Made by a program: the position numbers and the translations under genes. A DNA stretch of 62,531 nt, counting the filler, from Klebsormidium nitens (taxonomy: Eukaryota > Plantae > Klebsormidiophyceae): the NCBI GenBank assembly GCA_000708835.1. It is 5 parts of 5 records of this genome, joined end to end, with 100 filler letters (N's around TTAATTAATTAA, not from the genome) between each part and the next. Parts side by side here need not be neighbours in the genome. Positions count along the whole stretch, not along the records: positions 36,556 to 60,052 come from DF237891.1; 4 more parts are not named here. One strand, given 5' to 3'. Every line of letters starts with the position of its first letter. The stretch's first letter is position 1. The notes under the pieces are model-generated. The model saw only the letters and a list, made by a program, of their open reading frames with translations. It made no database searches and was not told where the DNA came from. Shown piece after piece: positions 32,921-62,531 of this stretch.

Positions 32921-34684
32921 TGTTGAAACTCTGGATAGGGAGTCGTAATGTAATTGAGACACTCGTCATTGGGTCTTCTCGTGTTGCCCGGCAATCATGC
33001 TCATCACTCATTGATGGCAACCATGCATCCTAAGTGGAACACACGAAGCGCCCGACAAGCGGCTTCCTTCTCTCCACAAATTTCTCTTAGAATGATGTAT
33101 CACAATAGTGGTTTCCACCACTATTGTCTCACGAGTCTATCCCGTTCCACTAGGCTCACTAGCCTAAGTCACACACTACTAGGCTCACTAGCCTAGCTCA
33201 CAGTCACACTCAATCTTAGCCTTCGATATCCTCATCTACGGCTTACACTGACGGCCGCTCTCAACGCCTAACCTCCAAGCCGCCTAACGGTTTAGCCGTC
33301 AAACCGCCGTACACGCATGTCGGCGTTCACTAGTTCAAACCCTAACTCGGGCGAACCCTAATCACATAGTAATTTGGCTGACCATAATCACCGAATACTA
33401 ACACTCCCACTCAGACGAATTACTCTAAGCCTCTAACTCGTCGCGCTCCTCTTGCGGGCTGTCTTCTTTGCCTTTGGCGTCACCCACACGCCTCCACTGT
33501 CGCCATCGTCGCTCTTCTCCGGCGACATCTTCTCCACTCCGTGCTCCAGCTCTTCGGCTTCCACGGCTTCCGTTGCTCCCACATTTGCCCGATACCACTC
33601 TGCGGGCTCCCGTCGCACTCTCGCGGGACATCTTCCCAACACGTGGGACTCCATTACAAGCTTCTCCGTTGCCTGTTCCACACCGGCGGGCTTGCTCTCT
33701 ACCGCCGTTTGTGGACTCTCCTTGCCCTTTCCAATCTCCTCAGACACCTCCACAACTTCGCGCATCGTTTCCACAATCGGCCCACTTTGGCCTTTCTTTG
33801 AAACTGTGCGCGCAACGCGGCCGCGGTCCATTGCGGGCGCGTGCGCGTCCCCCTTGCGCGCCGTTTCAAATTTCGCCCCTTTTTCGACCATTTCTAAATC
33901 ATGCGCGCATTGCTCCTCTTTTCAAACTTGTCCTCCAACTTCTTCCACGCTTTCTCTGCAGTGGGTTGACCCTCAATCAATTCACATATGCATCTTCCGT
34001 GTGGATCAGCATCAGCCCCCTTGCTTGGCTTGACACTTTCTTTTTTTCCACGGACTTCGGTTCCTTAACCGCACACAGCCATCCCTTGTATCCAAAAAGC
34101 CCACGGAACTTGGCCTTCCATGTTGACCAATTCTCACCACACAATTGCGGGATCGACACCCTGTCTCCCGCCATTTCAACAGCACTCTCGTCTAGATCGA
34201 TCTCCACGACCTTCACCGTCCTTTTCACCACGCTTTCCGCTCGTACCAGCCTCTTTGCCGTGGCGCACACCCGGTTCCCCACGACCGGACCCCTCGCAAG
34301 AAATACTCTTTGTTTCCCCACGGTCTAAATCTTCCATAGTCCTCCACGCTTGACTGCCTCCATACGGACCACATTGTCCGTTTCTATCTGCGCGGTTCTT
34401 CCCTCGAGCACCACTCGTGCTCCAGCGTCGGTCGCTCTAGTTAGCGAGAACAAACTCGCCTATGCCCTCGGAGCGTGCCGGACCTCCCTCAAAGGTACCG
34501 TACTCACACCGCTCGGGGTCTTACACTGAAGCTCCACTTCTTCAATGCCCACTGCAATCAGAGACTCACCACAGATCCCCACGATCTTCTCATCACACAC
34601 AAGCTCTCTGTAAAGGCTACTCCGTTTGTGTCTCCTGCGAACTCTTTGTCCTCCGCGCGGCCACTTGAGCGCGCGCTCTGCCAT
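32921..34684 (-). mobile_element. Degenerate Ty1/Copia element B with LTR 32921-33403 and PPT GAGTGGGAG; internally deleted or rearranged
   Basis: Minus-strand LTR TGTTAG...TTTCAACA; gag N-terminus MAGDRVSIPQL.GENWSTWK.KFRGL; protease-region GIEEVELQCKTPSG...LREV...NLFSL; post-integrase RVRREPAEWYRAN, similar to Copia A RERRAPGEWYRAN. Confidence 0.8.
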
Positions 34685-39994: not shown

Positions 39995-41187
39995 TCAGAG
40001 CTCGGCTGTGTCTCTCTTCCGCTTTGTCTTCCTTTGTATTGCACCATTGGATTGGCCTTGTCCCTCCCAACTGTAGCCATCATAAAACATGTGCTCAACG
40101 GTCACTTCGCGCACAGGCACGTGCATGAGGTGGTACTTGAGGCGCTCGACATATACATTCATGCGGGCTTCCATATGGCCTGGTTCCGGATGACGGGCAC
40201 CCCAAGCTTGTTGTACTTGAAACAGCTTGGGTGTTTTTCGCCATCTGCGGACGTGAAGCCGTCCGGATTGAACCGCAGCTGCACCTGAGGGCGATTGCCG
40301 GCATCCTGAAACAGCTCCATAAGCCTTTTGTTGTCGCACGAATAGTTGCTTGCAGAGTGTTGATCCTCGTCGCATTCCGAGTGCACGGTGTGGGTGTACA
40401 CATCGACAAAGATGTCAGGCCTCCGCGCCGAGCACCCGCCCTGAAGCCTCTTGTCGAAGGTGACTTCTGCAGTGTCTGGGAGAACGCTAGCCGCCTTGAT
40501 GTAGTCGACAAAGTGCTTCTCCTTGACCTTATAGTTCCTGGCAACCTTCTCGTCGGGAAACAGGTACACGAAACAACGCAGGCAGTAGCCCTTGTAGCGT
40601 TGTAGCGTGCTCTGAACGATAGTACCACAACCGTTAAGGCACATTCGGTTCACCAAGTTCACCATACCATCCGTCTTGCAGGCCGCGCAGTGGGTGGCCT
40701 GTCCACCCTCAAGTCCGAAGGACGGTTGTGCAGACTTGCAGTGGCACTTTGGATGATTCACATCCACCATGCCGTTCGTCTTGCAGGCCGCACAGTGGGT
40801 GGCCTGTCCGCCCTCGAGTCCGAAAGAAGGTTGCGCCTTCTTGCAGTGGCACTTTTGGCTCACCACGTCGACCATGTCGTCCGTCTTGCAGGCGATGCAG
40901 TGGGTGGCCTGTCCGCCCTCGAGTCCGAAAGAAGGTCGCGCCTTCTTGCAGTGGCACTTTCGGCTCACCACGTCTACCATGCCGTCCGCTCCCGAGAATG
41001 CAAGTGAACCGCGCTTCTTACCAAGCTGGGGATCCTCTCCCGAAGCGACTGCTGTGTGTGCAAGGACGCGCTCGACCAGAGCTCCCTCCATGATGCCAGC
41101 AGAGTTGCCAATCTCAACCGGAGCAGTCGCCCTAAGTGTTGACACAGGGGATGCCGCTTCCCTGGGAGCAGCCTCCATGTTGGCCAA
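39995..41187 (-). pseudogene. EsV-1-7-like Cys-rich repeats (3 x 34 aa) fused to a PD-(D/E)xK/Vsr-like endonuclease; 1-bp frameshift near 40175
   Basis: GMVDV..KCHCK.A.PSFGLEGGQATHC.ACK x3; RRPDIFVD...SECDEDQH...Y.CDNKRLMEL...LRFNPD. The alternate frame supplies the expected end ARMNVYVERLKY...EHMFYDG. Confidence 0.8.
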
Positions 41188-41289
41188 ATAGTTGCTACTC
41201 GTGGCCTGATCTGTTGCCCTAAGTGTCGATACGTAGGTGCCGTCGACTCTAACACGTCGTCATTATACGGGGGATGCTCAGCGCGCATG

Positions 41290-41545
41290 GCGCGCAAACA
41301 CGGAGGATTCAGAGCTGCCCCCTAGGAGGGAATCAGGGTGTCTGAGATTCTGAAAGACTTTTGAAAGTTACGCTCCATCTGCGTATGCGCGCAAGCTTGC
41401 CGTTCACTGTAAACGTTCCAATCATGCAGGGCATGCACTGCGCACATGGGGCACAAACACGGAGGATTCAGAGCTCTCCCCTAGGAGGGAATCAGGGCGT
41501 CTCAATTTCTCAAATACTTTTGAAACTTCTGCTCCATCTGCACAC
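41290..41545. repeat. Two diverged tandem copies of a ~159-bp non-coding unit
   Basis: caaacacggaggattcagagct..cccctaggag..aatcaggg...cttttgaaa.tt..gctccatctgc at 41295 and 41454. Confidence 0.8.
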
Positions 41546-41668
41546 GTGCGTGCGAGCCATCCATCCTAACATTCTTCAAATCATGCCGGGGTTTACTTGG
41601 AATTATAATAAAACGCCTGTGTCACCGTCTTATCTTCACATGCATGGTTGTACACCTGGGGCAAAACG

Positions 41669-43182
41669 CTACTCGGCTTGAGGCTTCAAAGAGACTCCCG
41701 CAAAGCCCCTGCAGCGCTTCGATTCAAACGTCATCTCTATCCCCTCGAATCCTATCGCATGCATGATCATACCAATACGCCTCTGGCCGAGCAGACGCCT
41801 GGGGATTTCACCGTACGTGGCAAATAGGTGCGCACGGAATTCCTTTGATGTTACCTTCTTCGACACCCCCACAACACACTGCTCTTCGACAAATCGCCTG
41901 ATCAGCTTCTCCACCTCGTTGTCGCGTGGAGAGGCTTTGGCATTTGGTGGGGCAGCACCTTGAACTTGCTGCTCGATGCCAAGGTTCTCGCCTCCATCCG
42001 CGACTGCCTGTGCTTCTCCTCCTGCCAGCACGATCGTTGTCGTTGCAGAGTCCTCTTCTGGTAGCTCTTCTGTACGTTCGGCGGTTGTGGACACCCAGCA
42101 GTCAGACAGAGCCATGTCTTGCAGTCGAGGAGCAGGCCTCACAGTGCTGGAGGTGGCCGACAATGTCCCCGCTTGCTCACAATCGGGAGAATTGGAACCA
42201 CGACTTTGCTCCCACCCGTCCAGCGGGTCAGCTGTTGGACTGCGAACTGCAGGAGGACTGCGAACTGCAGGAGGTTCAGCTGCAGCTCGCCCTGCTTGCG
42301 TCAGAGCTGCCAGCCTGAGCTCTTCCATCCTCAGAGCGTGATCCAATTCAGCCATGCGCACCTTAGCATCTATCTCGGCTTGTCGGGTCTTCTCCTTTGC
42401 CAGTAGAACCTCCTTACACTTCTCATCGTTGCTCGTGCCACCCACATAGAGGTGTTGGATCGTGTGTTGGCTCTTGTGGGCAGCCCTCTCTGCAATTGCC
42501 AGGACTGTGTCCCTGTCCACACGTTCTGGCAAGTGTATGATCTCTCGATGCACAGTGCCTCCGATCTCCACCTCTTGATGAAGTTCTTTGATCAGGGGGT
42601 CCTCCTTGAAGGAATCCTCGGCATCCTTTGGCCGATCCGCCTTCCATGCTCACTCCAGCCATTCCGCTTTTGGAGGTTGGTACTGCAACCGTACTTGTAC
42701 AGCTTCCCACTCTCACTGATACACGCAAGATATAGGCACCCTTGCTTGTCCAGAAGCATCTCCAATGCCTTCTCACGGGTCTCGATCGTCTTAAATGACT
42801 GTAGAGCCTCAACGTATGCATTCCTGATCGCTCGAAAGTACCGACGGACGCTGTCACCGACGGCCGTCTCTGTCCTCATGGCCAGGTCTTCGAAGCAATC
42901 CGTCGTGAGGAAGTATCTGTGGGCGACGGCACCACCTGTAGCATTGTCCTCAAATCTGATGAAACTCTCATTCTCTTTGTACTTATCCAGCCGGCGTAAG
43001 GCATTGGCCTTGGTGCTGTATTCCAACCACTGCCAGGCCTCGTCAAAGGGGACCGGATACTTGTTTCCGTGATCGTGGAACATTCCAACGAATATAGAAC
43101 CCAGTCGGTCCGTCATGCTCCTCTCGAATCCTTTTGAGATTGTCTCTAGAGTTGACGGGGTGATGATTTGCTGACTCGCCAT
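41669..43182 (-). pseudogene. MSV199/AntA-like N-domain + T5orf172(GIY-YIG)-like segment + coiled coil + D5/P4-primase-like C-terminal winged helix; broken by a frameshift and a stop near 42620-42670
   Basis: YPVPFDEAWQWLEYSTKANALRRL...YFLTTDCFEDLAM...VRRYFRAI; CLYL...YKYGCSTNLQKR; the third frame reads DAEDSFKEDPLIKELHQEVEIGG and continues into the 41669 ORF; IRRFVEEQC...VTSKEFR...GFAGVSLK. Confidence 0.6.
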
Positions 43183-43904
43183 CGTTACGGAGAGTCCTGG
43201 AATAATCTCGACCGTTTCAAACGCACTGGTCGCTAACCCTCACCAACATCGGCTCTGTTGGGCAATATCTGGAGGCCGTTGCCTCAAACTGTTTATTACA
43301 GTTTTCGTTGAAAGTGTCGCAGGTTGCGTGTAACGCTCGATTTTGATCAGGTGCGTTTGCTGCGTTTAAATGACCCAACTTTTTCCTAGGGAGATGGTAT
43401 GCTAACAGCCAATGTTGCATCACTGGGCTTCAATGACCTTGGACCCTTGCTCTCAGCGTGCCCCGTCACACACGGTATAGAGACCTTCATCCAAAGGCAC
43501 CATCTCAGTCCCTCCGATGGGACCTCAGTGATTCAGGTCGCGAGGTGTTCCGCAGGTGTACTCGTTATGGGTCGAAGGTCTATGGCATAGCTGAGGAATC
43601 ACAGCAAGTGTTGTCCTAAATTCAACAGTTTTTTCTGGTACCAGGCCTGCCTGGCGGCCAGAGGAAAGCCAGTTAACTCTGGTATTATTGCCATTTTCTG
43701 CTCTCTTTGTTTCCCCCGTTACGTTACAGGGGCGACAGTNNNNNNNNNNNNNNNNNNNNNNNNNNNNNNNNNNNNNNNNNNNNNNNNNNNNNNNNNNNNN
43801 NNNNNNNNNNNNNNNNNNNNNNNNNNNNNNNNNNNNNNNNNNNNNNNNNNNNNNNNNNNNNNNNNNNNNNNNNNNNNNNNNNNNNNNNNNNNNNNNNNNN
43901 NNNN

Positions 43905-44377
43905 TTGACAGCTGTATGGTTTGGCTGAAAGGCAAAGAGCGGCCAAAGCCATCGGCAAATCGAAGGGTGGCCCCTGCACCCCCACCCCCACCCCCTCCAC
44001 CTGGAAGATCGAAGCGGGCGACCAACATGTTTGAGACCAACCTGCGCGCACGCAGAGTCGCGGGGCATAATGCACCGGTTCTCGCCAAGGTAGCCCGGCG
44101 CTACACAGGGAGCAATCTGTCAAATGCCAACATTCTGCGCAATTACAGTCACAAGTACAAGTGGATCATGGATTCGGTCGCTCTGGCAGATGCAGAGCGC
44201 AAAAAGCTCAAGTTGCCCGTAAACGTGGTTGGCCATATCATTCCAAAGGTGAATAAGACGAAGCCTCTCACCGAACGAGACCTCGAAAGGCACTTTGAAA
44301 ACATTAAAAAAAAGGCTCAGAAAGCAAACATGTTGAGTGAGCTGCGTTCACGCCTAGCAAAACGGTCGGCAGTCTGA
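43905..44377 (+). CDS. Hypothetical protein (5' end in gap) with a poly-Pro tract and a basic C-terminal helix
   Basis: Open frame APAPPPPPPPPG...ANMLSELRSRLAKR; intronless. Confidence 0.55.
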
Positions 44378-44439
44378 GGGTTCAAAGGACTGACCGCGGC
44401 TTGGTGCTGGTCCACAATCTCGTTGTAGAACGTAACAGC

Positions 44440-45012
44440 ATGGTGATCGAGCACGAGTGCAGAGAGTACATGCTTCGAGCGATCGTGCAGGAGCCTGGAT
44501 GGAGGGTGGCAGAGGTGGGGGTGTTCCTGGGCGACCTCTCAGCATTCATGCTGTCACTGGAGCCAGCGGAGCTGCACCTCATCGACCCATTCGAGGGGCA
44601 GCTGGTTTCGGGCAATCGGGACGGTGACTCTATCCGCACGTGCCATGGGAACGATGCGATTGAGTATGTGCGGCGACGGTTCGAGGGTGACAACAGGGTG
44701 TTCATCCATCGGGCGTGGTCCCCGCAAGGACTGCTGCAATTCTACAGGGGGTACTTTGACCTCGTGTACCTGGACGGGTCGCACACTTACGAGGACGTGA
44801 AGAAGGATCTGGCGGCGGCCTTGACCAGAGTGAAGCCAGGGGGGTTCATCTGCGGACATGACTATGGGGCGAATCCGAAAAAGTGCCCTTTTGAGTACAC
44901 CTTTGGGGTGCGGCGTGCAGTGGACGAGTTCTGCAGGGATAACGACTTGCAAGTCTCACATGTGGCAAACGATGGATACATCAGCTTTGCAATCCAGCTC
45001 CCGCGAGCCTGA
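44440..45012 (+). CDS. Class I SAM-dependent methyltransferase (Methyltransf_24-like)
   Basis: VAEVGVFLGD (motif I), LHLIDPF, FDLVYLDGSHTYEDVKKDL, VKPGGFICGHDY. Confidence 0.9.
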   Translation: MVIEHECREYMLRAIVQEPGWRVAEVGVFLGDLSAFMLSLEPAELHLIDPFEGQLVSGNRDGDSIRTCHGNDAIEYVRRRFEGDNRVFIHRAWSPQGLLQFYRGYFDLVYLDGSHTYEDVKKDLAAALTRVKPGGFICGHDYGANPKKCPFEYTFGVRRAVDEFCRDNDLQVSHVANDGYISFAIQLPRA

Positions 45013-45212
45013 ACAGTCTCTAAACTCCTCCTAAACAGCATCAAAACTCCTCTCTGAACCTTGCCACCATCGTCACAGAATAGTTGTTCTTACCAGTCAG
45101 CATCTTTGAGCATATTGTCAAAGGCTGATACTCCGGGATATTGTAGCTGATTGTGTCAGAATAGACAACTCTAAGGGCCACTACCGAACTACACCATACA
45201 AAAGTCGATACC

Positions 45213-45640
45213 AGAATGAAGGTGTTACTACAAATTACACCTCTGAATCCTGAAGCTTCTAAAGCAGGTTCCTGAAGAAGTTAGTACAACACGATTGGAT
45301 CTCCAGAAAAAGGTGTTACTACAAATTACACCTCTGAATTCTGAAACTTCTGAAGCAGGTTCCTGAGGAAGTTAGTACAACGGCAAGTGCAACTACACCT
45401 TCTGATCCTGCAACCATTCACACCTAGTAATTCTGAAGCAGTTCCTGACATGCTAGTACAACACGACTGGATCTCAGAATGAAGGCGTTACTACAAATTA
45501 CACCTCTGAAACCTGAAACTTCTGACGCATTCTGAAGCAGTTCCTGACATGCTAATACAACACGATTGGATCTCAGAATGAAGGCGTTACTACAAATTCC
45601 ACCTCTGAATTCTGAAAGTTCTGAAGCATTCTGTTACTCG
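45213..45640. repeat. Intergenic tandem array, 4 copies of a ~92-99 bp unit plus a partial or divergent spacer
   Basis: agaatgaagg(t/c)gttactacaaattacacctctgaa starts at 45213, 45305, 45476 and 45575, with internal (t)tctgaa sub-repeats. Confidence 0.85.
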
Positions 45641-45790
45641 TAGAACTCAGAGTAACAAGAGTGCCTCAGATGGAACCATACTTTGCACTCCTCACGAGCT
45701 CTGCATGCACGTGCTACTGGGCGTGCACCTCGTCTGCCTGGACAAAGAAGATAGCGGGCATGCAGATTATTCTTACCTTGGAATAGAGCA

Positions 45791-46444
45791 ATGGAGTTTG
45801 TCGATGTTGTTGGGTCGAATTGAGAGGTGGATGTCTGCCTCCTCGAGGGGAACCACTGTAGGCCTTGGGTCCTCATCCGGCGATCGGAGGTCTTGAGGGG
45901 CATTGGAGGGGCACACGAGCTAGGGCTGTTTGCGGCGCGCCCGATGCCAGCGGGGACCATCATTGGGAGATACCTGGGCTTTGTGTTGGGAAAGCGAGGG
46001 AGAAGGCAAGTAGAGAGGGAGGCAAAGGTGCTGGAGGATGCGGGCAAGGCAGCCTACCTACTGACGATAAGGGGCATCATTGTGGACGGCTCAAGGCCAC
46101 CTCAGAGTGATGAGGAGCAGCTTGCGGTGGCTGGCACGGTGCTGTTCCCAACAGACGAGTACGACTACCCTGGGGCTCACATGCACATCATGAACGATGG
46201 GCACGGCATGCCGTATCCAAACAACGTCATGATTGACGCAGACGGGTTTGCCATCACAATGGTTGACGTTCCCGCTTACGCCCCAAAGGGCTCGCATGAG
46301 GCAAAGGCTCTGAGCGAACTCCTGTGGGATTACACGGACAGCTATTGGGAGATGATGGACTCTCTGCTGGCTGCAAACAAGAAGCGGAAGGGAGATGCAG
46401 CACGGAATGAGAGATATGCAAAGAGGGCGAAGATTGGGAAGTAG
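45791..46444 (+). CDS. Stand-alone SET-domain protein (vSET-like); probable ATG at 45791 followed by an in-frame TGA at 45821-45823
   Basis: IRRSEVL...LGLFAARPMPAGTIIGRYLG...HIMNDG...ELLWDY; intronless, no pre- or post-SET domains. Confidence 0.75.
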
Positions 46445-47823
46445 GCAGCTTTTTTGGCTGCGCCCACTGCTGCAGAGGCACCTTTTAACAATCATATAAG
46501 CCACATCTTGCAAGCCACGTCTGGATCCAGGTCACACTTGTGGGTTGCATGCACCGCTAGTCCACCGTCCATCACCTTTACGCACCCTACAGTATGCCGT
46601 CGATCGCCGACGGGTGAGCCGGTCCAAAAAATCGGTGACCTCGGGTATCAATTATGCACCTTCATTCACCGTCGTTCACCCAAAGCCACCCGCGTGTACC
46701 CGTTGGTAAGCCGTCGATCGCACAAAGTCACCTCTGAAGGACCGTCGATCACCCGAAGACACCCGCCGGTTAACCGGTTTCCCTTGACAGCCGAATATGA
46801 GCCTGGTGCGGTCAGGCCACCCGGGCGTCATACTTTTGGCAAACATTGAGGTAATTGATCGTCATACCTCAGACCCTGCCGAAACTTTCCAAAAGTTCCC
46901 ACATGGATTCACCAAGTCTCTTGACTCGGGCCCCTTCTTGCGAATCTGCATCATCAGGGGCTACTGTGGTGTCCCTCTTGGATTACAAGCCTGTTTTCAA
47001 GAGGACCACCTCCATAGAGTGCCCAAGAGGCGGCTGCAACGAGAGGTACGTCATGGTGCTGAGCTCAAGCAGGTTTGCAAGAAGATTCTGAGCTGGCTGT
47101 TGAGCTGCACGATGAACATGATAAGTGTTCTGAAGAGTCTGACATGTCTTGTCAGTCTCTGTGCAGGTACTTGGCGGAGACCAAATGGTTTCACGAGCTT
47201 GTCTGCTGCAGTGTGCACTGCCCGCGCAGCTTTGAGGTCTCTGGACAGCGGGTGGGCTGTACATGGTCGGGGAAGCGCGAAGATCTGGCCGGCCATGCTT
47301 GCTGCATGGAGGATGCTGAGGAGGTCTTTCGACTGGCCCTCCAGCTAGGTTACGCAATCAACCGCATGGTGAACCCCCCAAGCAAGCTGCCAGAGGTTTT
47401 TGTGCACAGCTCATATAACAAGACCTTTGCATGTTCGGAGACAACACAATCGTATAGGACGGCTCCGGAGACAACACAATCGTGTAGGACGGCTCTTTCT
47501 GTAGGAAACTGAGGTCAGAGTTGGAATAGTGAGACAGTAGGTTTTTGTAAATACAGTGGGCCGCTTTCTGTCGTTGGGACAACATAGGTGCCAGTGAGAG
47601 AGTCAGTCACGGACACTGAGTCTGGATATGAAGCAACCAAGAATGTAGAATATTAGAGTGAACAGCAAGCTTGCGCGGGTACACAGATGGCGAACAAATG
47701 TCAGCTTTTTGATTGTAGGGAGGGGAGCCAAACCCCTGTGTATCTGCGCACCTGCGCAAGCCTTGATCATCACACCAAATGTACGTTTCCAAGCATTGCC
47801 TGTGGCTTCCTCACTGTCAATCA

Positions 47824-48059
<236 letters not shown>

Positions 48060-48282
48060 TTGGATGCTATCTGTATTGTGCTGAGATAAAGTTCTTATGA
48101 GCTTTGGTGCACATCAGTATGACACCATCGATGCTTAGGGAATAGAGATCTGGCAGCACGAGCATTTGCAGTACGGGCTACGGTCGTTGGGGGCTTAAGG
48201 AAAAGAGATTTGGCAGCAAAGACATACCATAAGAACCATGGCGACCAAAGTGTGCAGGACCATAACGCAACGGACATTGTAA

Positions 48283-51200
48283 TCAGGACAGGTTCACCTT
48301 CTTTGCCGTAGTGCTCTTGTTGTATGCTTCTTTGGGGCAGGCTTTCCACCCATACACACCACCGCCCTTGGAAACTGATTTATGATGCTGCAAGCGTCCA
48401 CTTGAGTTCCTGGTCCTTCTGAAGACGCCATACGTGGTTGGCCGCCCATCTGAAGTGATGAGGTTGTGATTCGCATATGTTCTGGGGATAGTTGGACTTG
48501 CAGTGGGTGGTCCAAAGTTGCTTCTAGCACTTGTCCATTGGCCACTTGTGTTGGGCTGGGAAGGTCCAGCATTGTTCTGAGCGGTCTCTGCTGCCTGAAG
48601 ATGGTCTCGAGCTTTTGCTATGTGCTGAGCGGCAGCTGCCGCGTTCCTGGCCTTGATTGCATTGTTAGCTTCGACTACGCTGGCTGCTGTCTGGTGGGCA
48701 TCGGGGGCATTAGGATGCAGATTGTTGACCGCCTCCTCAATGTGNNNNNNNNNNNNNNNNNNNNNNNNNNNNNNNNNNNNNNNNNNNNNNNNNNNNNNNN
48801 NNNNNNNNNNNNNNNNNNNNNNNNNNNNNNNNNNNNNNNNNNNNNNNNNNNNNTGGGAGCTTTGTGGGATCCTTTCGAGATTGCCTTGCGAGGACCGAGC
48901 GTTCCTCTGGAGCGCATGACGGGTGCTATTTGAGCAGTTTTTGCTTGACCGCGGTTCTGCTGGGAAGGTCCGACGTTCTCTGCCGCCTCCAAATGTTCTC
49001 GAGCATTCCCCACGTGCCGTGCTGTGTTGGTTGCATTCTGGGCATTCATTGCGTTTGTTGCCTCGACTATACTGGCTGCTGTTTGTGCGGCATCTGGTGC
49101 ATTGGCTTGCAAGTGGTTGAGGGCCTCCTCAATGTGTTTGTTTGCAATGGCTTGGTCCTCCCCATTTGCCATCGCATTGAGGGCTGCATGGACGTGTGCA
49201 CGTGCCCGACGATTCCTGGGAGGGTCACTGTACATCCTCATGTTCTGTGCCGAGGGGCCACCCCGGGGTGGGTACACGCCACTTGCATACCGAGTGGCTG
49301 GCTTGCTTGTCCTCCCACTACTTCGAGGGACACGGCTCTGTGCGCGTGCTAGAATGCCCGGGTAGATTTCGTCCAAGCAACGTTCCAGAATCTTTAGCTT
49401 CGCAGGGGGGGTCTTTAAGGTGAGCCTGTTGTATCTTTTCAGGACTTCTGCTTCGGACAGCTCTTTCTCGTCCCAAAGACCCGCTTTCAGCAGGATGGTC
49501 TTGCAAGGACTGAGCGTTCCCCTCTGTACCCTGGGCATCTGATGCCGCAGTGTCCCGGGGCGGAGTACGGGTGCTCTTTGCCTCCCACTGCTTTGAGCTT
49601 GGTGGGACAGAGTACCCCTGGTTAACGGCCTCACGAGACCTGCCAGGTCCTCTGCGTTTGTAATCATGTGTGGCTGGAGCATACCTGTGTTCCCGTCTCT
49701 TAATGCAGCCAATCGTCTCTGTATTTGATCCAATTCTACGTTGTTGGAATGAGTAGGACGTGCTTGGGATGGCCCAGCATTGTTTTGAAGGACTGCCTTG
49801 CCCTTTCGATTCCGTTGTCTCTGTTCATTCTCCGCTCCGTGCAAAAGTTCCCGAGCATTTGCTACATGCTGGGCGGCAGCTGCCGCGTTTCGGGCATTGA
49901 TTGCATGATTTGCTTCGACTACGCTGGCTGCTGTCTGGTGGGCATTGGGGGCATCAGGTTGCAGGTTGTTGACCGCCTCCTCAATGTGTGCGTTTGCGAT
50001 TGCTGTACCCTGGCCACTTGCAACCGCATCAAGGGCTGCCTGGACTTGTGCACGTGCGCGACGATTCCTGGGAGGGTCACAGTACATGTTCATGTTTTGT
50101 GCCGAGCGGCCACCCCGGGACGGATAAACGCCGCTTGCGTACCGAACCACCGGCCTTCTTGTCCTTCCACTTCTTCGTGGGACGCTCGGGGCGTTTGCTG
50201 CGTGACCCCCAAAGCGAGGCCAAAGCCGAGGCCAAGGCCATTTCGAGGTCTTTTGGTGCTGGGCAGACGGACGTTCGAGAAATCTGGAGAAGCAGGATTC
50301 CCCGCTTTACGCTTTGGCACTCTCGTCCTTCCAGCTGTTGCTGTGTGATTGGGTCTCTCCATATAGCTGCGGACCCTTTGGCGTCGAGATGCGTCCCTGT
50401 CGCGTTTCTGTTGTCTTCTGGACAAGGGGTAGGGCGCGCTCGTCACGTGAACGCGCTTGCGCCTGGGTTTTGGACCGTAGAATGTGCGGGCACTCCTTTC
50501 TTCATCCACATTCAAGGCAGCATCTTCGTCACTCGAGTTGGAAGATTCAACCCTCTCGAGATAGCTTCTGACCCGTTGGCGTCGAGATGCGTCCCTGTCA
50601 CGTTTTTGCTGTCTTCTGGACAAGGGGTAGGGCGCGCTCGTTACGTGAAAGCGCTTGCGCCTGGGTTTTGGACCGTAGAAGGCACGAGCGGATCTCTCTG
50701 CTTCTCTCATCCTTTCTTCGGCGGCACGGGCTTCCTGTCGCCTTCTCAGGTTGTTGTGCCGCGTGTCTCTCTGAGGTCGCGCGTAGGGACTAGGGCGCGG
50801 GGGGCGTGAGTGGTGTCGAAATTCTGGTCCCGTGGGCCTGGACGTCGAGCTTTGAGCACCGTAGAATGATGTTGCATCCCTTTCTGCCTCCGTGTCCGCC
50901 GCTGCTTGGGCTGCACGGACTTCCGCGTTCAGCTGGTCTTGGGATTTCATCTTGAAGCACTCACTGACGCGCTGGAAGTAGTCTTTGGAGTCGACGCCGT
51001 ACATTGCTGTCTTGTCAGGATGGAACTTTAGAGACCACTTACGAAAAGCTTTCAGAGTCTCAGCCTCCGTAGGCTTGCGGATGTTTTTCAGGAGCTCCTC
51101 GCAGCTTTGTTTAGCACTGGAAGCAATGATGGATTCGAGCTCCCGCTTTTTGGCATTCTTCTCTTGCCTCACGCGATTGACATTTGCTGCGTGATTTGGG

Positions 51201-52402
51201 CCGTGGTGGGAAGGCCCAGCATTGTTCTGTGCAACTGCCTTGCCCTTTCGGTTCCGTTCCCTTTGTCTTTTCTCCGCCGCCTGAAGATGGTTTCGAGCAT
51301 TTTCTACATGCTGAGTGGCATCTGCCGCGTTTTGAGCATTGATTGCACGGTTTGCCTCGATCACACCGGCTGCTATTTCGGGAGCATCCGGGGCATCAAC
51401 TTGCAGGTGGTTGACAGCCTCCTCAATGTGAGCGTTTGCGATTGCTGCATCTCGACCGTTCACCACTGCATCAAGGGCTGCGTTGACGTGTGCACGTGCC
51501 TCAGGATCCCTGGGGGGGTTACTGTACATCCTTCTGTTGTGTGCCGATCGGCCACCCCGCGGTGCATAGTTGCTGTTTGTGAAGCGAACCACTGGCGTTC
51601 TTGTCCTCCCGCTTCTTCGTGGGCCAAGCGTGTGGGGCTTTTTAAAGATGGTCTTGCGAGGACCTAGTGCTTCTCCGTGTACCCCCGAGCGCGTCGCGGG
51701 CACTCTTGGCCTCTCGCTACCTTGAGAAGCATTTATGTCATCGACTGGATTGTCGTGATTGACATCCATATCATCTACAACATCCTCCTGTGGGGTTTGA
51801 GGGTGGGTGGACGGCCCAGCATTGTTTTGAGCACGTGTCTTTCCCTTTCGGTTTCGTTCTCTCTGTTCTTTAGCTTGCACGGCCATCTGCCGGAGCTCTG
51901 CAGAGAGCCCCTCCCGCCTCGTACCTTGACCGCTTCCGACAAACGCCCTCCTCGGTGCGACTTGCCCCCCACTCCTTGCCAGGCCGTGCTGCTCGCCTCT
52001 CGGTCGGTCGAGGCCAGCAAGGGAGTCATCTTCGTCTGAATCACCCTCATCGAGCAGACCCCCATACAGCTGCCGGTTGATATGTTGCTGTACTCTGTTT
52101 CGAGCCGCAGCTGCACGCTGTTGTTGCTCCCTAACCTCTGTTGCGTTTCGTTGCTGCTGCTGGTATATTTGATCGACCCATGCATCATCTTGAACGGTCT
52201 GGAAGCAGTCAATCACTCTCTGGAGAAGTTCTGTTTGACCATACCTGGCAGTATACTCTTGGACCCAGCTTTCAAAACGAGACCTTGCATCATTCTCGGT
52301 CAGACCGGGTTCCCATATACCTAGGACCCTGAGGATGTCCGTACACGGCATGCTTCGAGCGAGGCGGGCACAAACGTCATCCACATTGGTAGTCGTCCCC
52401 AT
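48283..52402 (-). CDS. Giant (>1300 aa) repeat protein with an internal J-domain and four ~95-aa Ala/Asn-rich modules; frameshift near 50200-50250, gap at 48745-48853
   Basis: TLKAFRKWSLKFHPDKT (HPD motif). The module Y..RGG.SA.N..MY..PPR..RARAHV.AAL.A...AIAN.HIEEA.N.LQ..AP recurs near 51250-51620, 49860-50150, 48960-49290 and 48580-48745; stop TGA at 48283. Confidence 0.7.
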
Positions 52403-53472
52403 ATCTGCACGTGGCGGGCGTGCATTCGGGCCTGCTNNNNNNNNNNNNNNNNNNNNNNNNNNNNNNNNNNNNNNNNNNNNNNNNNNNNNNNNNNNNNNNN
52501 NNNNNNNNNNNNNNNNNNNNNNNNNNNNNNNNNNNNNNNNNNNNNNNNNNNNNNNNNNNNNNNNNNNNNNNNNNNNNNNNNNNNNNNNNNNNNNNNNNNN
52601 NNNNNNNNNNNNNNNNNNNNNNNNNNNNNNNNNNNNNNNNNNNNNNNNNNNNNNNNNNNNNNNNNNNNNNNNNNNNNNNNNNNNNNNNNNNNNNNNNNNN
52701 NNNNNNNNNNNNNNNNNNNNNNNNNNNNNNNNNNNNNNNNNNNNNNNNNNNNNNNNNNNNNNNNNNNNNNNNNNNNNNNNNNNNNNNNNNNNNNNNNNNN
52801 NNNNNNNNNNNNNNNNNNNNNNNNNNNNNNNNNNNNNNNNNNNNNNNNNNNNNNNNNNNNNNNNNNNNNNNNNNNNNNNNNNNNNNNNNNNNNNNNNNNN
52901 NNNNNNNNNNNNNNNNNNNNNNNNNNNNNNNNNNNNNNNNNNNNNNNNNNNNNNNNNNNNNNNNNNNNNNNNNNNNNNNNNNNNNNNNNNNNNNNNNNNN
53001 NNNNNNNNNNNNNNNNNNNNNNNNNNNNNNNNNNNNNNNNNNNNNNNNNNNNNNATAAGCCGAGGAAATTTGTCGACTATGGTTATGTGAAGTATGTGCT
53101 TGGAGGCAGCTTATTGACATGCTGGGTACTTTTGGCTCATTCCGCCCGAAGTTCTTGTACTACAGCTGTGACATGCCTCTGCACGTTGCTCTATCCGCTC
53201 GACAAGTGGTCCCGAAATTCGCGGTCCGAATAGCTTGGCGTTCGATTGCCCTTTCCTAAACACCTGGCGATGAGACGTATCTACGGAAGAGCTTGGGATT
53301 CACTTCGGCCCCCGGGGTGAATTGCTCAACAGCTTTGAAATCAATCAGGAGGCCAAGGACCAGCAGAGCGATAAGGCAGTAGTAGAGAAACATGCTTGCA
53401 TACACCTTGTGAACAAAATCAGCTGCTTCGGTTAGCTTGCCATGAATTTTTTCCGACAACCATGTAACAGCT

Positions 53473-53606
53473 ATGAGGGCTTCTATAGTCCCAGTCCTGG
53501 TGCTTGCCATGCTGACCACATCTGTCTCTTCTGCAAGCGTCGCTCGAAGATCTCTCCTGTGTGCGAATCACACCTGCCACAACGTCACTCAAACGCCTGG
53601 CCCGGA
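53473..53606 (+). pseudogene. Truncated paralog of the secreted Pro-rich protein at 55840
   Basis: MRASIVPVLVLAMLTTSVSSASVARRSLLCANHTCHNVTQTPGP, near-identical to the N-terminus of the 55840 gene; runs into an N gap and the downstream sequence is unrelated. Confidence 0.7.
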
Positions 53607-53712
53607 NNNNNNNNNNNNNNNNNNNNAAAGTTCACACGGTGTTGACCTGCATTTGGACCCGTGCCAGTACTCGCAAATGCCACATGACGACGTCCACTCG
53701 TCCCTCTACTAA

Positions 53713-54195
53713 CTACAGGACGCGCGATTGGGCTTGTGCTAGTATCCACCCCCCTGTTTTGCCTGCTTCCGACACTGGCATCAGTACCTCTGCCAATGCC
53801 TCCGATCTGTAAGCCCACCTTGACTCCCCCGACCTGCGTGCCTCTGTTGAATCGTCCTGTCTGTGTGCCCATGTTGACTCCCCCGACTGTGTGCCTCTAT
53901 TGAATCTTCCTGTTTGTGTGCCCACACCGCCCCTCCTGACTGGTTGGGGCCTTGTCTGTCCTCTAAAGGTCTGACGGCAGTGTCTGTGTTGCCAGCAGAG
54001 CGTGCTGCCAAGCTCTGCTAAACGCGAGCACTGCCTGTGACCGGTCTTGACCACACACATGCACCGTGCTAGAGCAGGACTGCGCTGAGTTGCACTGCTA
54101 CCGCATGCCTGATGGAGATGACAGAAGCGGGATTGAGCTATGGCAGGGAGGGAGCAGCGACGCCCCCGTTGCGTTCTGCAAGCACACTGCATCAC
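53713..54195 (-). CDS. Small Cys/His zinc-binding repeat protein (DUF5763-like C..T..G..C...C..H x2) with a GTQTGRFNR repeat tail, probably frameshifted
   Basis: CACRTQRGRRCSLPAIAQSRFCHLH and CMCVVKTGHRQCSRLAELGSTLCWQH. Confidence 0.5.
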   Translation of the reverse strand: MMQCACRTQRGRRCSLPAIAQSRFCHLHQACGSSATQRSPALARCMCVVKTGHRQCSRLAELGSTLCWQHRHCRQTFRGQTRPQPVRRGGVGTQTGRFNRGTQSGESTWAHRQDDSTEARRSGESRWAYRSEALAEVLMPVSEAGKTGGWILAQAQSRVL

Positions 54196-54311
54196 TTACT
54201 CGTAAGCCGAGGAAATTTGTGGACAATGGTTATAGGAAGCCCGTGACATTGATTAGAAATTCCGCACCCTTTCAAAAAGCAGTACTGTAGTGACTGTACA
54301 AGTGTAGCAGA

Positions 54312-55562
54312 TCACACAATTGCGTCCAGGCAACAGTCTGTAATGGTAAATGCCTCATCCTCCATTATTGTTGGCTTGCCGTCCTTCAGATCGTAGTACA
54401 TGTATTGAACGTACAGACCTTCTGATTCCATCTCTGCTGCCTCATCAATGGCTTCGAGCAGACGTGCCTCTCGAATCTTGCGTGTGACCGCTGCTCGCTT
54501 CCCGTCAATCTGGAACGCATGAGGGTTGTAGCGAATGATGTGCACGGGCAGTGAGTTGCCTTCGATGGCCCACGCCTCGTAGATCTGCAGCATTCGTGCC
54601 ACATCGCAAGCCACTCCGTAGCCTTCGTGCTGGTACTCGTCAACCTCGATCACAATGATCTTCCCCTTGTGGTCGAGGATGAAGTCAATACGCGCGAACG
54701 AGCCCCCCAAGCAGTCAAAGGTCACATGATGCTCGCGCTTGAAAGGGAGTCCGGCCTTTGTGAGTAGCTTGGCAATCCGCTCCTCCTCGCGCTTCCGACG
54801 CTGCTGGCCCTCCTTCGTGTGGTAGTAGAAAGTGTGTGTCTTCAGGGGGTCGCCCCTCGAAAATGCTTCCTCGCAGTCTGCTTCGATGCACTTGTATGGC
54901 TTCTCGCCCGTATGCGTGCGCTCGTGCAACGTCAGATGTATACTTTGTGCGAAAGCTTTACCACATCCGGGATGAGAGCACGCATACGGCTTTTCACCCG
55001 TATGTGTACGCTCGTGCGTTCGAAGCTGTGTGCCTTGCGTAAAAGCGGCGCCACAGCCTGAGTAAGTGCATTTAAACGGCTTTTCGCCCGTATGTGTGCG
55101 CTCGTGAGACCTTAAGGCGCTGAGGTGTGAGAAAGCGGCTCCGCAGTTGAAAAAGGTGCATTGATATGGCCTCTCGCCCGTATGTGTGCGTTCGTGCTCC
55201 TTTAATTGGTCAGCCCTTGCACAAAGGGTGCTGCAATCTCGAAAAGAGCACTTGAAAGCCTTCTCAGCGGTATGCTGCGTGACTTTGTGTCGAGCAAGGG
55301 TCTTACTTCTGTTGAATTCAGCATCGCAATCTGGATGATCGCATTTGAATTCCTTTTCGTCGGTGTGCACCGAGGATTTGTGTTGAGCAAGGTTATCGCT
55401 TCTCGTGAATTTGGCGCCACAGTCCTGATGATCACACTTGAAAGCCTTCTCGTCAGTATGCACCGTGGATATGTGTCGAGCAAGGCTGTCAGTTCTTGTG
55501 AATTTGGCACCACAATCTCGATGATTGCACACGTACCACTTTTGCACGACTGGAGAAGCCAT
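54312..55562 (-). CDS. Intact 8x C2H2 zinc-finger array fused to a PD-(D/E)xK/Vsr-like endonuclease (416 aa from M at 55562)
   Basis: Eight C-x4-C-x12-H-x3/4-H fingers, four TGE(K/R)P linkers; C-terminal ARIDFILDHKGKIIVIEVDEYQHEGY...CDVARMLQI...IIRYNPHAF...VQYMYYD; no stops, no introns. Confidence 0.9.
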   Translation of the reverse strand: MASPVVQKWYVCNHRDCGAKFTRTDSLARHISTVHTDEKAFKCDHQDCGAKFTRSDNLAQHKSSVHTDEKEFKCDHPDCDAEFNRSKTLARHKVTQHTAEKAFKCSFRDCSTLCARADQLKEHERTHTGERPYQCTFFNCGAAFSHLSALRSHERTHTGEKPFKCTYSGCGAAFTQGTQLRTHERTHTGEKPYACSHPGCGKAFAQSIHLTLHERTHTGEKPYKCIEADCEEAFSRGDPLKTHTFYYHTKEGQQRRKREEERIAKLLTKAGLPFKREHHVTFDCLGGSFARIDFILDHKGKIIVIEVDEYQHEGYGVACDVARMLQIYEAWAIEGNSLPVHIIRYNPHAFQIDGKRAAVTRKIREARLLEAIDEAAEMESEGLYVQYMYYDLKDGKPTIMEDEAFTITDCCLDAIV

Positions 55563-55839
55563 GTTGAATTGATGCTTCTTGGGGTCCTGCAAGTCCCTAA
55601 GCAATGATTCTGTGCTGCTCAGACGCCTGGTGATGCCATGAATCTCTGAAAAAGTGTTGGATTCACCTCGGCCCATGGAGTAAATTGCTCCACAGCTTTG
55701 AAGTCGATCAAGAGGCCAAGGACCAGCAGAGCAATCAGGCAGTAGTAGAGAAACATGCTTGCATATACACCTTGTAAACAAAATCAGCTTGCTTCGGTTG
55801 GTGTGCCATGAATTTTTTCCGACAACCATGGTAACAGCT

Positions 55840-56481
55840 ATGAGGGCCTTTGTAGCCCCGTTCTTGGTGCTCGCCATGCTGACCATGTCTGCCTCTGCTG
55901 CAAGCATCTCTCGAAGATCCCTATTGTGTGCCAATCACACCTGCCATAACGTCACTCAAACACCTAGCCCGGAAACACTTCCAATCTCGTACAATTACCC
56001 GCCTCCAATGACAACACAGAGCTCTCCCCCACCCCAGCCAACAGAGACACAGAGCCCTCCACCTCCTGCAACAGAGAGTCCAACACTACCACCAAACCCC
56101 CCTCCTCCAATTCAGACTGAGGCTCCAACACCCGAACCAACTGAAGCCCCCACCGAAGCGCCCACTGCAACCCCAACTGAGGCTCCCACCCCAATTCCCA
56201 CACAAACGGAAGTCCCTTGTGTAAATACCACAGATGCACCCTCTCCTGAGCCTGCAATCGCGCCTGCTCCCCAGCCGATTGCACCGGCTCCGACTGTGCA
56301 GCCATCCCCCCCGCCAGAAATCCTGCCCATAGAGGCTCCAAGCCCAGCCCCCGCTCAAGCCCCTTGTGACGAACCGAGTCCCTCACCTGTCATTGCACCC
56401 GCACCAGCGCCATCAGAAGACCCCATGCAGGTCTGCTACAACTCATATGAACTGAAGAGCTGCACTTGCAAGTGCAACTAA
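55840..56481 (+). CDS. Secreted Pro/Thr/Ala-rich (HRGP/AGP-like) protein with terminal Cys motifs
   Basis: Hydrophobic signal-like N-terminus MRAFVAPFLVLAMLTMSASA; TEAP/PAPAP repeats; ends CYNSYELKSCTCKCN; intronless. Confidence 0.75.
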   Translation: MRAFVAPFLVLAMLTMSASAASISRRSLLCANHTCHNVTQTPSPETLPISYNYPPPMTTQSSPPPQPTETQSPPPPATESPTLPPNPPPPIQTEAPTPEPTEAPTEAPTATPTEAPTPIPTQTEVPCVNTTDAPSPEPAIAPAPQPIAPAPTVQPSPPPEILPIEAPSPAPAQAPCDEPSPSPVIAPAPAPSEDPMQVCYNSYELKSCTCKCN

Positions 56482-57156: not shown

Positions 57157-57867
57157 ATGCCATACATCCCGTCCCCCATTCGAATGCGGCCAAAAAGGAA
57201 TGATCCACACTGGTTGAAGTGGACACCGGACACTTATGACCGATACCTGACACAGAGCTGGTACACACCAGAACGCCTTGCAAAGGCAATGTCATCTATA
57301 GTCGAGCGGGACATACAGTCAACCGGGGGGAAAAGTCATGATTGGTCGATGTGGGACCCAGCTGCTGGTAGCGGGCGATTGTACGAATGCTTCACGAGCC
57401 GCAATCGCTTTGCATCTGATCTGCGAGGGACAGACTTTCCATGCAAGAGTGACAAACGATTTTTTGGGGGCATAGACTTCCTCAAAAACGTTCTTCAGCC
57501 TCTGGTTACACGCAAGCAGATATATTTGATTGTGAATCCGCCTTTTGGGGACCTCACATGCCACTTCATAAACAGGGCGTTTGATGGGACCTACCCTGTC
57601 AAGCGTGCTCTGTTTTTGGTAAGCGGTGCAGCAAACTCCGCCCGCTATCTTGACAAGGTTGATTACTCACGCTGTGTGCTTGTTCAGAAGAGCAAACCAT
57701 TCACGGCAGACTTTGAGATCCTGCTCGAGCCCCGTCAAGGGGGGCTACCAAAGTATCGGTCAAACAAGCAGAACGTGCAACTCATGCTGTTTTACTCATC
57801 CCATGAATACAAGGCAAACTCGAATCTGCTCACCAAGAGACGAAAACAAATGCTCCGTGTACCTTGA
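57157..57867 (+). CDS. Putative N6-adenine (or N4-C) DNA methyltransferase, gamma-type motif order
   Basis: WYTP (motif X), WDPAAGSG (motif I), IDFL, IVNPPFG (motif IV); intronless. Confidence 0.8.
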   Translation: MPYIPSPIRMRPKRNDPHWLKWTPDTYDRYLTQSWYTPERLAKAMSSIVERDIQSTGGKSHDWSMWDPAAGSGRLYECFTSRNRFASDLRGTDFPCKSDKRFFGGIDFLKNVLQPLVTRKQIYLIVNPPFGDLTCHFINRAFDGTYPVKRALFLVSGAANSARYLDKVDYSRCVLVQKSKPFTADFEILLEPRQGGLPKYRSNKQNVQLMLFYSSHEYKANSNLLTKRRKQMLRVP

Positions 57868-60765: not shown

Positions 60766-62470
60766 TTGCAGGCAAGAGATGATAGGGAGCTCAGTGTAGA
60801 GACGGGCATCAAGAGCCAGGCTTTGCGTTACCTGGGTTTGATTGGCGAAGGGGTCTGCCGGGTGTTTGTGCCGGCTGAAAGCGCATGCCCGCCGTTGAGG
60901 CTGTACATGACAGGTTGGGATCACAATGGGCGCGGCAAACCAAGACCTCTTGGAAAGCCGGACAAGGTGTTTGCGCTGGCAGAGACGGTGTGGTGGAACA
61001 TGGTTGGCGAGCTAAGCTGCACGTGCGACCGGGGAAGACTGACGCATAATGCGCCATGTGTTCACAAGTTTGCAATGGCCGCACTCAGCGAGAGCTGGAT
61101 CCAGGGGGCGGAGCTGCCAACACGGCAGATGCTGGGGCAGGGAGTGAGGGTGGAGCAACTTGCGTCGGACGAGAAGGGGAGCTACTTTGCCGTGCTTGAC
61201 AACCCCCATAGTGTCTCACGACGGATGGTGTTTCAGAGCAAGAGTGGGGCCTGGTATTGCCAAGGAAAGCGAGATGGATGCCCGTCGTTGACGGAATGTT
61301 CTCATATAGGCGCGGCAAAGGCTGGTCCTAGTAACGGGATACATCCCGTTACGGAAGAGCTGGTTCTTGGGTCAGGGCCGCTTGCAAGGGCTGCCGCAAG
61401 TTGGTTGGAATTATCGAACGGCACGCTGCCTCTGATTGGGGTCTGCGGTGGAGGCGACTCGAGCAGACGGGCTGGAAGCATGCAATGGGGAGCAAGGGGA
61501 AGAAGCGCTCACGGAGGAGCAGCGCTATCTCTTGGGTCTTCTGGCAAGACAGCCACACACGGCGGCAGCCTGTGTCGGAAGCTCGTGCTTCTGTCGCAAG
61601 CATGCCTCCCTCTTTGATGAAGCGCGGCCGCCGTCGGAGGCAAGGGAGGTGGTAGCTGCGGCAAGCGAGGGGGCAACAAGTGGCGTCACCATGAAGCAAC
61701 CTGCTCGCAAGCGAGTACGCAGATCGAAGGCGTTCTGGAAGGAGGAAGCAAAGGCGCCAATGCGCAGCCGCCCCTCAGAGTCGCCCAAACCTTCCCCAGA
61801 TGCTCGGGGGAAGGATGCGATCCACGGCTGGGTGACTACATGCTCGAGCTGTACGCTGGAGTCGGTAGCATTCAGGGGGGGGTGTAACCATGGGGAGGAG
61901 GAGCGCATTATGTCTCCCGTGATGCTGATTGGCACCGAAGCGGTCCAGTTGACGAAACCAAAGCTTGCAAGGCTCAGTGATGCGCCGAACTTCCATGACC
62001 CATGGGTCACTATCCTCCGAGGGGGGCCGGTTCGGGTCAGCAGGCTGAGGGACTGTCATTTTGCGGAGCTGTCGGATCTGGGCATGCTGAGCGCGCCATG
62101 CCCACTCGAGCCCCCTCCCTGCGGCGGATCCTGGGTTGAAGATTGGGTGGAAGCCTCAGTGACCGCTTCGCAATGGAGCCAGCGGGTTCGAGTGCGCCTC
62201 TATCATTGTACTTGCCTCGACCAGGCGCACACCATCCATCTCGACGGAGAGGCTCTTGGCCTCTACACGTGGAACCGGAAGACCCTCTTTGTTCAAGAGA
62301 GCCTGCAGCTGCTTCTGCGTGGCATGCAGCACGGGCACTCGTTCAAGGCGGAGTTGGCCACCAATCAGGCGGCGTTTCAGCGGTGCCCGGAGGCGGAGGT
62401 CTTGAGCGAAGAGACGTGGCGCCGCGCGAGTTTGGACTTCTTCAAATTGCTCGGTTTGGGCATCCGATGA
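60766..62470 (+). mobile_element. 5' portion of a KDZ/Zisupton-type transposon ORF: two SWIM fingers plus a CxC4-like cysteine cluster; frameshift in the G-run near 61440
   Basis: CTC...CVH and YC....GC....CSH (SWIM); CPLEPPPCGGSW...LYHCTC...IHLDGEALGLYTWNRKTLFVQESL...TWRRASLDFFKL (CxC4-like). The catalytic KDZ domain is not in the window. Confidence 0.65.
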
Positions 62471-62531
62471 AGCGGCGCTGAACAGAATCGACTCGGGGTG
62501 AGAGAGATACGAGCTGGAGAGACGATATACG

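Follow-up and report, generated by a model that had tools for sequence, protein, structure and literature searches.

Known systems of comparable design

The closest described systems are the phage EDxHD homing endonucleases such as I-Bth0305I (3r3p), in which an N-terminal repeated DNA-binding module precedes a C-terminal Vsr-like domain and of which free-standing members are reported in the accessible part of the source (PMC3239194). The same layout is found in two genes of the alga Klebsormidium nitens (assembly GCA_000708835.1), termed here gene A and gene B, which lie on one scaffold within a stretch of 62,531 nucleotides, filler included (hereafter the window). Gene A has EsV-1-7 repeats and gene B has C2H2 zinc fingers in front of a common C-terminal domain. 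Judged from sequence comparison, genes A and B represent two old sub-lineages of a giant-virus family that joins a zinc array to a predicted Vsr-like nuclease and that probably spreads as a free-standing homing endonuclease. The observations behind this reading are the shared domain, its conserved acidic and His residues, the two lineages, the patchy presence of the genes, and insertion scars in viral relatives.

In gene B, residues E260, D293, H312 and D320 follow the order of E170, D196, H213 and D222 in I-Bth0305I, and by this order and the spacing the two sets may be equivalent (PMC3239194, accessible part). In contrast, the NUMOD and helix-turn-helix motifs of I-Bth0305I have no counterpart in genes A and B, where Pfam finds C2H2 and EsV-1-7 arrays instead. 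This family further differs from I-Bth0305I in its ExDExQH and RxNP motifs, in a longer C-terminus and in its occurrence in giant viruses instead of phages, and no intron or intein was seen. Because the NUMOD module is replaced, the family is not classed with the EDxHD homing endonucleases, although it resembles them in its presumed working. Engineered zinc-finger nucleases consist of a C2H2 array and the FokI domain. Gene B likewise has a C2H2 array N-terminal to a predicted restriction-fold nuclease, but it is natural, and its nuclease is Vsr-like and not FokI.

The best characterised fold matches are the Escherichia coli mismatch endonuclease Vsr and the DUF559-like protein 3hrl. Vsr is a stand-alone domain whose zinc loop and tryptophans serve to read a T:G mismatch. 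The zinc loop and intercalating tryptophans of Vsr, as described in the available sections of PMC3239194, have no sign in this family, in which the domain is instead fused to long arrays and mobile; the gene B domain has one Trp, and no Trp pair is conserved across both lineages. Vsr-like nucleases of mirusviruses (n = 16) have been proposed to home into virion genes of these large eukaryotic DNA viruses and reside inside spliceosomal introns, whereas the present family is free-standing (PMC12768974, in the portion available). In EhV-99B1, a putative endonuclease took the place of a transporter gene and a 75-base scar was left (PMC5371807, in the portion available).

The EsV-1-7 repeat is regarded as a possible new zinc-finger class (PMC12477816; 10.1101/2024.02.19.579948; 10.64898/2026.04.27.720984) and is fused to a TcMar transposase in Ectocarpus (PMC12477816); the available literature passages on the repeat contain no demonstration of DNA binding. 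No published description of a zinc-array Vsr-like nuclease family was found in a search that covered open texts, in part as excerpts, and few subscription papers.

A shared putative nuclease domain with a Vsr-like predicted fold

The preliminary description had read a common C-terminal signature from genes A and B, and alignment of the domains bears this out. They are 31% identical over 81 amino acids (aa) in BLASTP (E 4e-8), and profile–profile comparison gives a probability of 99.0 (E 2.8e-18, 142 columns). Protein searches yielded 65 proteins for gene A and 33 for gene B, none of them in common; 32 of the latter carry C2H2-type Pfam marks, and the last was confirmed by scan. A scan of IMG/VR for the catalytic motif returned at least 325 confirmed relatives among at least 604 stretches, 80 of which were kept, and these loci together with two smaller scans gave 90 nuclease open reading frames (ORFs) in 86 of 88 loci. 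The analysed set comprised 169 domains; 18 rows were excluded because they lacked the motif or were too short, along with a single locus row and both annotated products from the window. Family size and range as given here are lower bounds.

At seventeen alignment columns, including K..E, C, RxD, ExDExQH, C...R and RxNP, the A-type set (63 rows) and the B-type set (26 rows) share a residue whose frequency exceeds 70% in each. Among the 169 domains, which were selected for D..ExDE.H, the upstream E is present in 166, an acid three positions before the conserved R in 158 and RxNP in 165. The predicted Vsr/EDxHD-like nuclease domain of gene B comprises 168 aa (window 54315-54818, minus strand; E260, D293, E306, D308, E309, H312 and D320), and the conserved residues in the main frame of gene A are E220, D255, E268, D270, E271, H274 and D282.

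AlphaFold returns a confident alpha/beta model of the gene B domain from a 28-row alignment (predicted local distance difference test, pLDDT, 91.8). When this model was searched against 48,161 chains, a Toxoplasma mitoribosomal protein came first (Z 8.0), followed by Vsr (1cw0; Z 7.9, root-mean-square deviation 3.8, 123 aligned), 3hrl (Z 7.7), I-Bth0305I (3r3p; Z 7.6, root-mean-square deviation 4.1, 97 aligned) and the RAP module of FASTKD4 (Z 7.3). The Foldseek list for gene B includes, above E 0.001, Vsr and further proteins with a restriction fold. A BFVD search gave 41 models that match the domain at E<=0.001, the best named being giant-virus proteins called 'endonuclease' or 'C2H2-type' from Heterosigma akashiwo virus, marseilleviruses, cedratvirus, pithoviruses and faunusvirus. 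The first match in the ESM Atlas (0.91), taken as a lead only, belongs to an unnamed cluster that is 94% viral. No Pfam model of the domain exceeded its cut-off (best NERD, E 3.6e-4, 21.4 bits vs 22.1), phmmer against the PDB gave one unrelated match (E 0.51), and tblastn against 50,697 phage records gave 7 records, none significant (best E 0.3). The modelling supports the view that the domain of genes A and B constitutes one nuclease family with a Vsr/DUF559-like predicted fold. The fold anticipated in the preliminary description is recovered by the structure search at middling scores.

RAP-type folds score as high as Vsr, and EsV-1-7 proteins have been proposed as developmental regulators in brown algae (10.1101/2024.02.19.579948, in the part available). 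The family might accordingly consist of DNA-binding regulators with a non-cutting Vsr-like domain, comparable to RNA-binding RAP domains or to the brown-algal EsV-1-7 regulators. The acidic and His residues are, however, nearly invariant across both lineages, and patchy presence and decay are ill-suited to a core regulator; a regulatory role thus seems distinctly improbable.

Two array lineages

Four array types are found on the domain: C2H2 fingers, EsV-1-7 repeats, CxxHGG repeats and CxH repeats ('CEH', CxH-x-CxxC). The latter two, for which there is no Pfam model, are seen at loci L023 (5278-6504), L026 (295-1419) and L061 (2137-3396). For the two genes of the window, the sequence analysis agrees with the earlier count of three EsV-1-7 repeats and eight C2H2 fingers. 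The preliminary description had gone further and regarded the arrays as interchangeable. Taken in its strong form, this reading implies a platform with free exchange of C2H2 and EsV-1-7 modules on a single nuclease, of which genes A and B would be a swapped pair. Four array types on one domain, CEH domains that are 45-62% identical to the nearest EsV-type domain, and two array types side by side in L026 and L061 are in its favour.

The nuclease-only tree points the other way. This unrooted tree, run in quick mode, comprises 76 rows after near-copies and unlabelled rows were dropped, and its sample is biased in being seeded by genes A and B. One side holds 25 C2H2 rows and one CxxHGG row and the other 45 EsV and five CEH rows, the split having a value of 100 in the Shimodaira–Hasegawa-like approximate likelihood ratio test. 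Array labels change six times on the tree, compared with 26.7 in shuffles, and no exchange between C2H2 and EsV was found among the 76 rows. Placement of genes A and B as sisters, as expected from a local array swap, is rejected by the approximately unbiased test (p 5.4e-5) as well as by the tree split.

Other comparisons are also at odds with free exchange. The best identity between a C2H2-type and an EsV-type domain is 46% over 105 aa, and each lineage has its own linker and inserts. The best match lies within the own group for 36 of 37 C2H2 domains and 109 of 109 EsV domains, the exception being a long-branch row. Of 43 further A-type loci, 32 have EsV arrays, three CEH and none C2H2; seven are short or unclear, and one is without a motif. 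Several origins of the CEH array were also considered and are not shown, one origin being not rejected (approximately unbiased test, p 0.25). Change of array type is thus rare, with at least three events, two of which involve other Cys repeats; this number is a floor because one CEH origin is not rejected. Sequence comparison indicates that the C2H2 and EsV types are two old sister lineages and not freely swapped parts. As an evolutionary statement, free exchange of arrays appears largely refuted, although swaps made by engineering might yet function in vitro, and the platform as a whole is judged highly improbable: tabulation of N-terminal partners confirms several array types on one domain, but not the exchange between C2H2 and EsV.

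Variation is instead found inside the arrays. In a K. nitens paralogue of gene B, identity is 96% across the nuclease but 64% across the final two fingers, and 13 close A-type relatives contain zero to five repeats at 75-89% nuclease identity. These comparisons indicate that finger contacts and repeat numbers change fast inside the array.

Insertion scars at DUF5901 genes of giant viruses

Of 128 DUF5901 loci, the best 80 were examined. A C2H2 nuclease lies upstream of DUF5901 in four of the 80 (three distinct), and in all four an orphan 5' piece of the DUF5901 gene precedes the nuclease. Five more loci (three distinct) keep the orphan together with the nuclease 3' end (L105) or with junction letters alone (L119/120/122 and L125), whereas no orphan was found in the other 71 loci, some of which have little upstream DNA. 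The insertion is at codon ~44-46 of DUF5901, and most orphans end at codons 43-46. The series runs from C2H2 carriers that have a replacement 5' end through decayed carriers to empty alleles and includes L017 (5386-7578), L021 (5401-7587), L090 (1452-4005), L152 (353-2675), L105 (1291-2582), L119 (3001-4196) and L125 (568-1600).

In L017 and L021, the nuclease ORF opens with DUF5901 codons, the first 43 or about 37 of them, and the DUF5901 gene itself follows intact; in both, the nuclease and DUF5901 are near two major-capsid genes. Across the nuclease and the initial ~120 bases of DUF5901, identity between the two loci is 81-98%, but it is 50-93% (mostly 58-85%) further into DUF5901 and about 35-40% upstream. 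Compared with the empty allele L094, L017 shows 91-100% identity immediately beyond this tract and 66-76% inside it, and the L017 orphan is 80% identical to L094. The pattern of L017, L021 and L094, together with the orphans and remnants, is as expected if a cassette that brings a replacement 5' end had been inserted and had subsequently decayed. The sequence GTCGAYCTGGT, chosen after the orphans had been seen, occurs in 7/7 orphan pieces, 1/7 replacement ends and 21/44 empty alleles; the alleles are related to one another.

A second site is located at the other end of the DUF5901 gene, where an EsV nuclease is present in 10 of 65 loci, another gene in five (including L090) and nothing in 50. 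In L003 and L004, the nuclease domains are 93-99% identical, compared with 49-72% in most of DUF5901. At L091 (4023-5310) and L103 (4026-5275), the EsV nuclease site is occupied by another optional gene, whose N-terminus has a C2H2-like motif. In viral relatives, the nuclease is thus present in some alleles of a fixed site and missing from others, and in the window gene B is missing from a paralogous copy of its flanks. Horizontal spread with co-converted flanks and decayed alleles was found in viral relatives, though not for genes A and B themselves. The analogy to free-standing homing endonucleases made in the preliminary description is backed by these scars, as far as sequences of viral relatives can tell.

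Homing as the probable explanation

In the proposed process, the array would bind a long DNA site, binding by EsV-1-7 being itself a premise, and the nuclease would cut the DNA of a co-infecting virus at an allele that lacks the gene. As the break is mended from the carrier, the nuclease gene would be copied together with some flanking DNA. For the C2H2 lineage at DUF5901, the cut would fall inside the 5' end of the gene, and the cassette would restore DUF5901 with its own recoded 5' end, leaving the resident 5' piece as an orphan; the nuclease would later decay. Within a lineage, re-targeting would come about mainly through altered finger contacts and repeat number; only rarely would a new array type be the cause.

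The same loci could be read as the marks of a restriction-like or host-DNA-degrading nuclease that benefits the virus in virus competition or host shut-off and is moved by ordinary recombination at hotspots. The predicted fold is of PD-(D/E)XK type, an ORF with weak resemblance to N6-methylases (E 0.18) lies 1.6 kb from gene B, and the insertion sites also accept other genes. ORFs near L021 and L030, apparently methylase-like by their motifs, were counted on the same side. Long arrays, in contrast, imply long and rare sites, and the fixed breakpoint in a conserved gene, the replacement 5' end and the decayed alleles fit homing better, making a restriction-like role unlikely.

Several points weigh against homing. 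Cleavage and DNA binding by nucleases of this family are predictions. The fold scores, at Z 7.6-7.9, are middling, Vsr-like folds without a homing role score equally high, and Foldseek against the PDB gave no match at E<=0.001 for the model of gene A or gene B. The recoding signal is weak (GTCGAYCTGGT, replacement vs empty, p=0.12). A further orphan piece in L021 precedes an unrelated gene; because of this, and of the other gene in 5/65 EsV sites, both insertion places may be general hotspots. The C2H2 nucleases at DUF5901 are only 38-42% identical to the gene B domain. No orphan gene piece or target site was found beside gene A or B, and no hallmark gene of nucleocytoplasmic large DNA viruses was found among the scaffold ORFs scanned.

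What is new here is the combination of a C2H2 nuclease at DUF5901 codon ~44-46, an orphan 5' piece, an apparently recoded replacement 5' end and deleted remnants, which makes up a homing signature with a testable target. The DUF5901 alleles form a matched set (empty, carrier and decayed carrier) that makes cleavage and specificity directly testable. If homing is true, eukaryotic giant viruses possess a large family of homing nucleases whose design resembles that of engineered zinc-finger nucleases, and EsV-1-7, which is among the most expanded brown-algal domains and so far has no assigned molecular function, gains a likely DNA-reading role. A tentative extension, which we consider possible but would not yet favour, is that natural zinc-finger nucleases of giant viruses home as free-standing genes, mend the broken gene with a recoded 5' end and are re-targeted by finger contacts, and that the EsV-1-7 sister lineage behaves alike, so that EsV-1-7 would be a module for sequence-specific reading of DNA that selfish viral nucleases have spread. 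For the window itself the gain is modest: an intact gene and a broken one within an old viral insert.

Genes A and B in K. nitens

The preliminary description had treated window 39995-41187 and 54312-55562 as two genes. Gene B is intact, its 416-aa ORF on the minus strand starting with an ATG at 55562 and ending in a stop codon at 54312, but gene A is frameshifted and its terminal MFYD motif is in another frame.

The eight fingers of gene B (54819-55529, minus strand; residues 12-248) match Pfam zf-C2H2 and zf-H2C2_2. The recognition helices are RTDSLAR, RSDNLAQ, RSKTLAR, RADQLKE, HLSALRS, QGTQLRT, QSIHLTL and RGDPLKT. Helices that start with Arg or R-x-D are the pattern of DNA-reading fingers. 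Arg begins five of the eight, with R-x-D in three of these, and DNA binding by the array is a well-based prediction. A loose site guessed from fingers 1-4 with the finger code as generally known had no match in the window.

Near gene B, a paralogous copy of its flanks without the gene is present at 53056-53606 as two matching blocks (53056-53092 vs 54203-54239, 89%; 53260-53606 vs 55623-55973, 85%). The blocks are 167 bases apart in the empty copy and 1,383 bases apart around gene B, and from the sequences the absence of gene B from the duplicate would fit gain or loss alike. The segments 53256-53606 and 55621-55973 form a duplicated pair, each with a small membrane-protein gene and an oppositely read gene for a secreted, proline-rich protein. 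Neither inverted repeats nor orphan gene pieces were found flanking gene A or B.

The span of gene A (39995-41187) is not a single ORF: the frame from the ATG at 41178 ends at a stop at 40159. The main frame (40159-41178, minus strand; 339 aa) contains three EsV-1-7 repeats and most of the nuclease domain, and an alternative, possibly true, start is the ATG at 40980. The repeat units (40638-40988, minus strand; PF19114) are 105 bases each and form the direct repeat family D5 with 77-78% identity; Pfam EsV_1_7_cys (PF19114) matches three stretches at E 9.8e-19 (67.4 bits vs a cut-off of 25). The last helix, the last strand and MFYD are in an out-of-frame tail (39995-40171, minus strand) beyond a frameshift near 40170. 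One 531-base contig in each of the runs X1 and X2 crosses the break with 0 other letters and 0 gaps; as X1 and X2 possibly derive from the same sample as the assembly, this agreement is not independent. Most likely, gene A is a pseudogene or encodes a truncated protein. The AlphaFold model from 40980 has a mean pLDDT of 86.9, and no RNA dataset was listed as containing gene A.

Upstream of gene A, two copies of a ~145-base repeat (41238-41541; 81% identical) belong to an element of high copy number elsewhere in the genome. Its summed contig depth in X1/X2 is about 220-250 compared with 11-15 over most of gene A, a 15-20x excess, and other contigs depart from it at the same places. Its 20-base core has 0 exact matches in IMG/VR. 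Possible identities of the element are a viral promoter present in repeated copies and one terminus of a small mobile element.

The scaffold and its likely viral origin

The window consists of several scaffolds joined at N spacers, and genes A and B are both on the scaffold at 36556-60052 (23,497 bases between spacers). Its sequence is likely endogenous giant-virus DNA of K. nitens, a view taken because the relatives of genes A and B are viral. The annotated K. nitens proteins KFL_009420030 and KFL_009420060 correspond to genes A and B and are 100% identical in the nuclease region, although the public gene models differ in splicing from the plain ORFs. Paralogues in K. nitens are known from protein searches only; one of A type is a predicted fusion with PF04947, named 'hypothetical virus protein'. 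The genome reported under the name K. flaccidum is, we assume, that of K. nitens. Phycodnaviridae-like core genes have been reported in it (PMC5294986, in the portion available).

Two flanking ORFs have no confirmed IMG/VR relatives and one further ORF has only two unnamed homologues, and therefore no confirmation of viral origin comes from them. The latter, at 42423-43182, is a 196-aa ORF with a weak AntA-like match that seemingly continues in another frame, and is probably another broken gene of the viral insert. At 45167-45633, a ~95-base unit is present in four to five tandem non-coding copies. Two ORFs at 48546-51871 (472 and 770 aa) are made of long internal repeats (170-420 bases, 70-86% identity), the 770-aa ORF having a weak DnaJ match. 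The ORF at 57157-57867, 1.6 kb from gene B, has the adenine methylase motifs DPAAGSG and NPPF and matches Pfam N6_Mtase at E 0.18. Elsewhere in the window, on other scaffolds (12652-13668, 29268-29708, 33433-34328 and 60766-62481), there are pieces of retrotransposon integrase and of PHD, as well as an ORF with CxC4, a domain associated with KDZ transposases.

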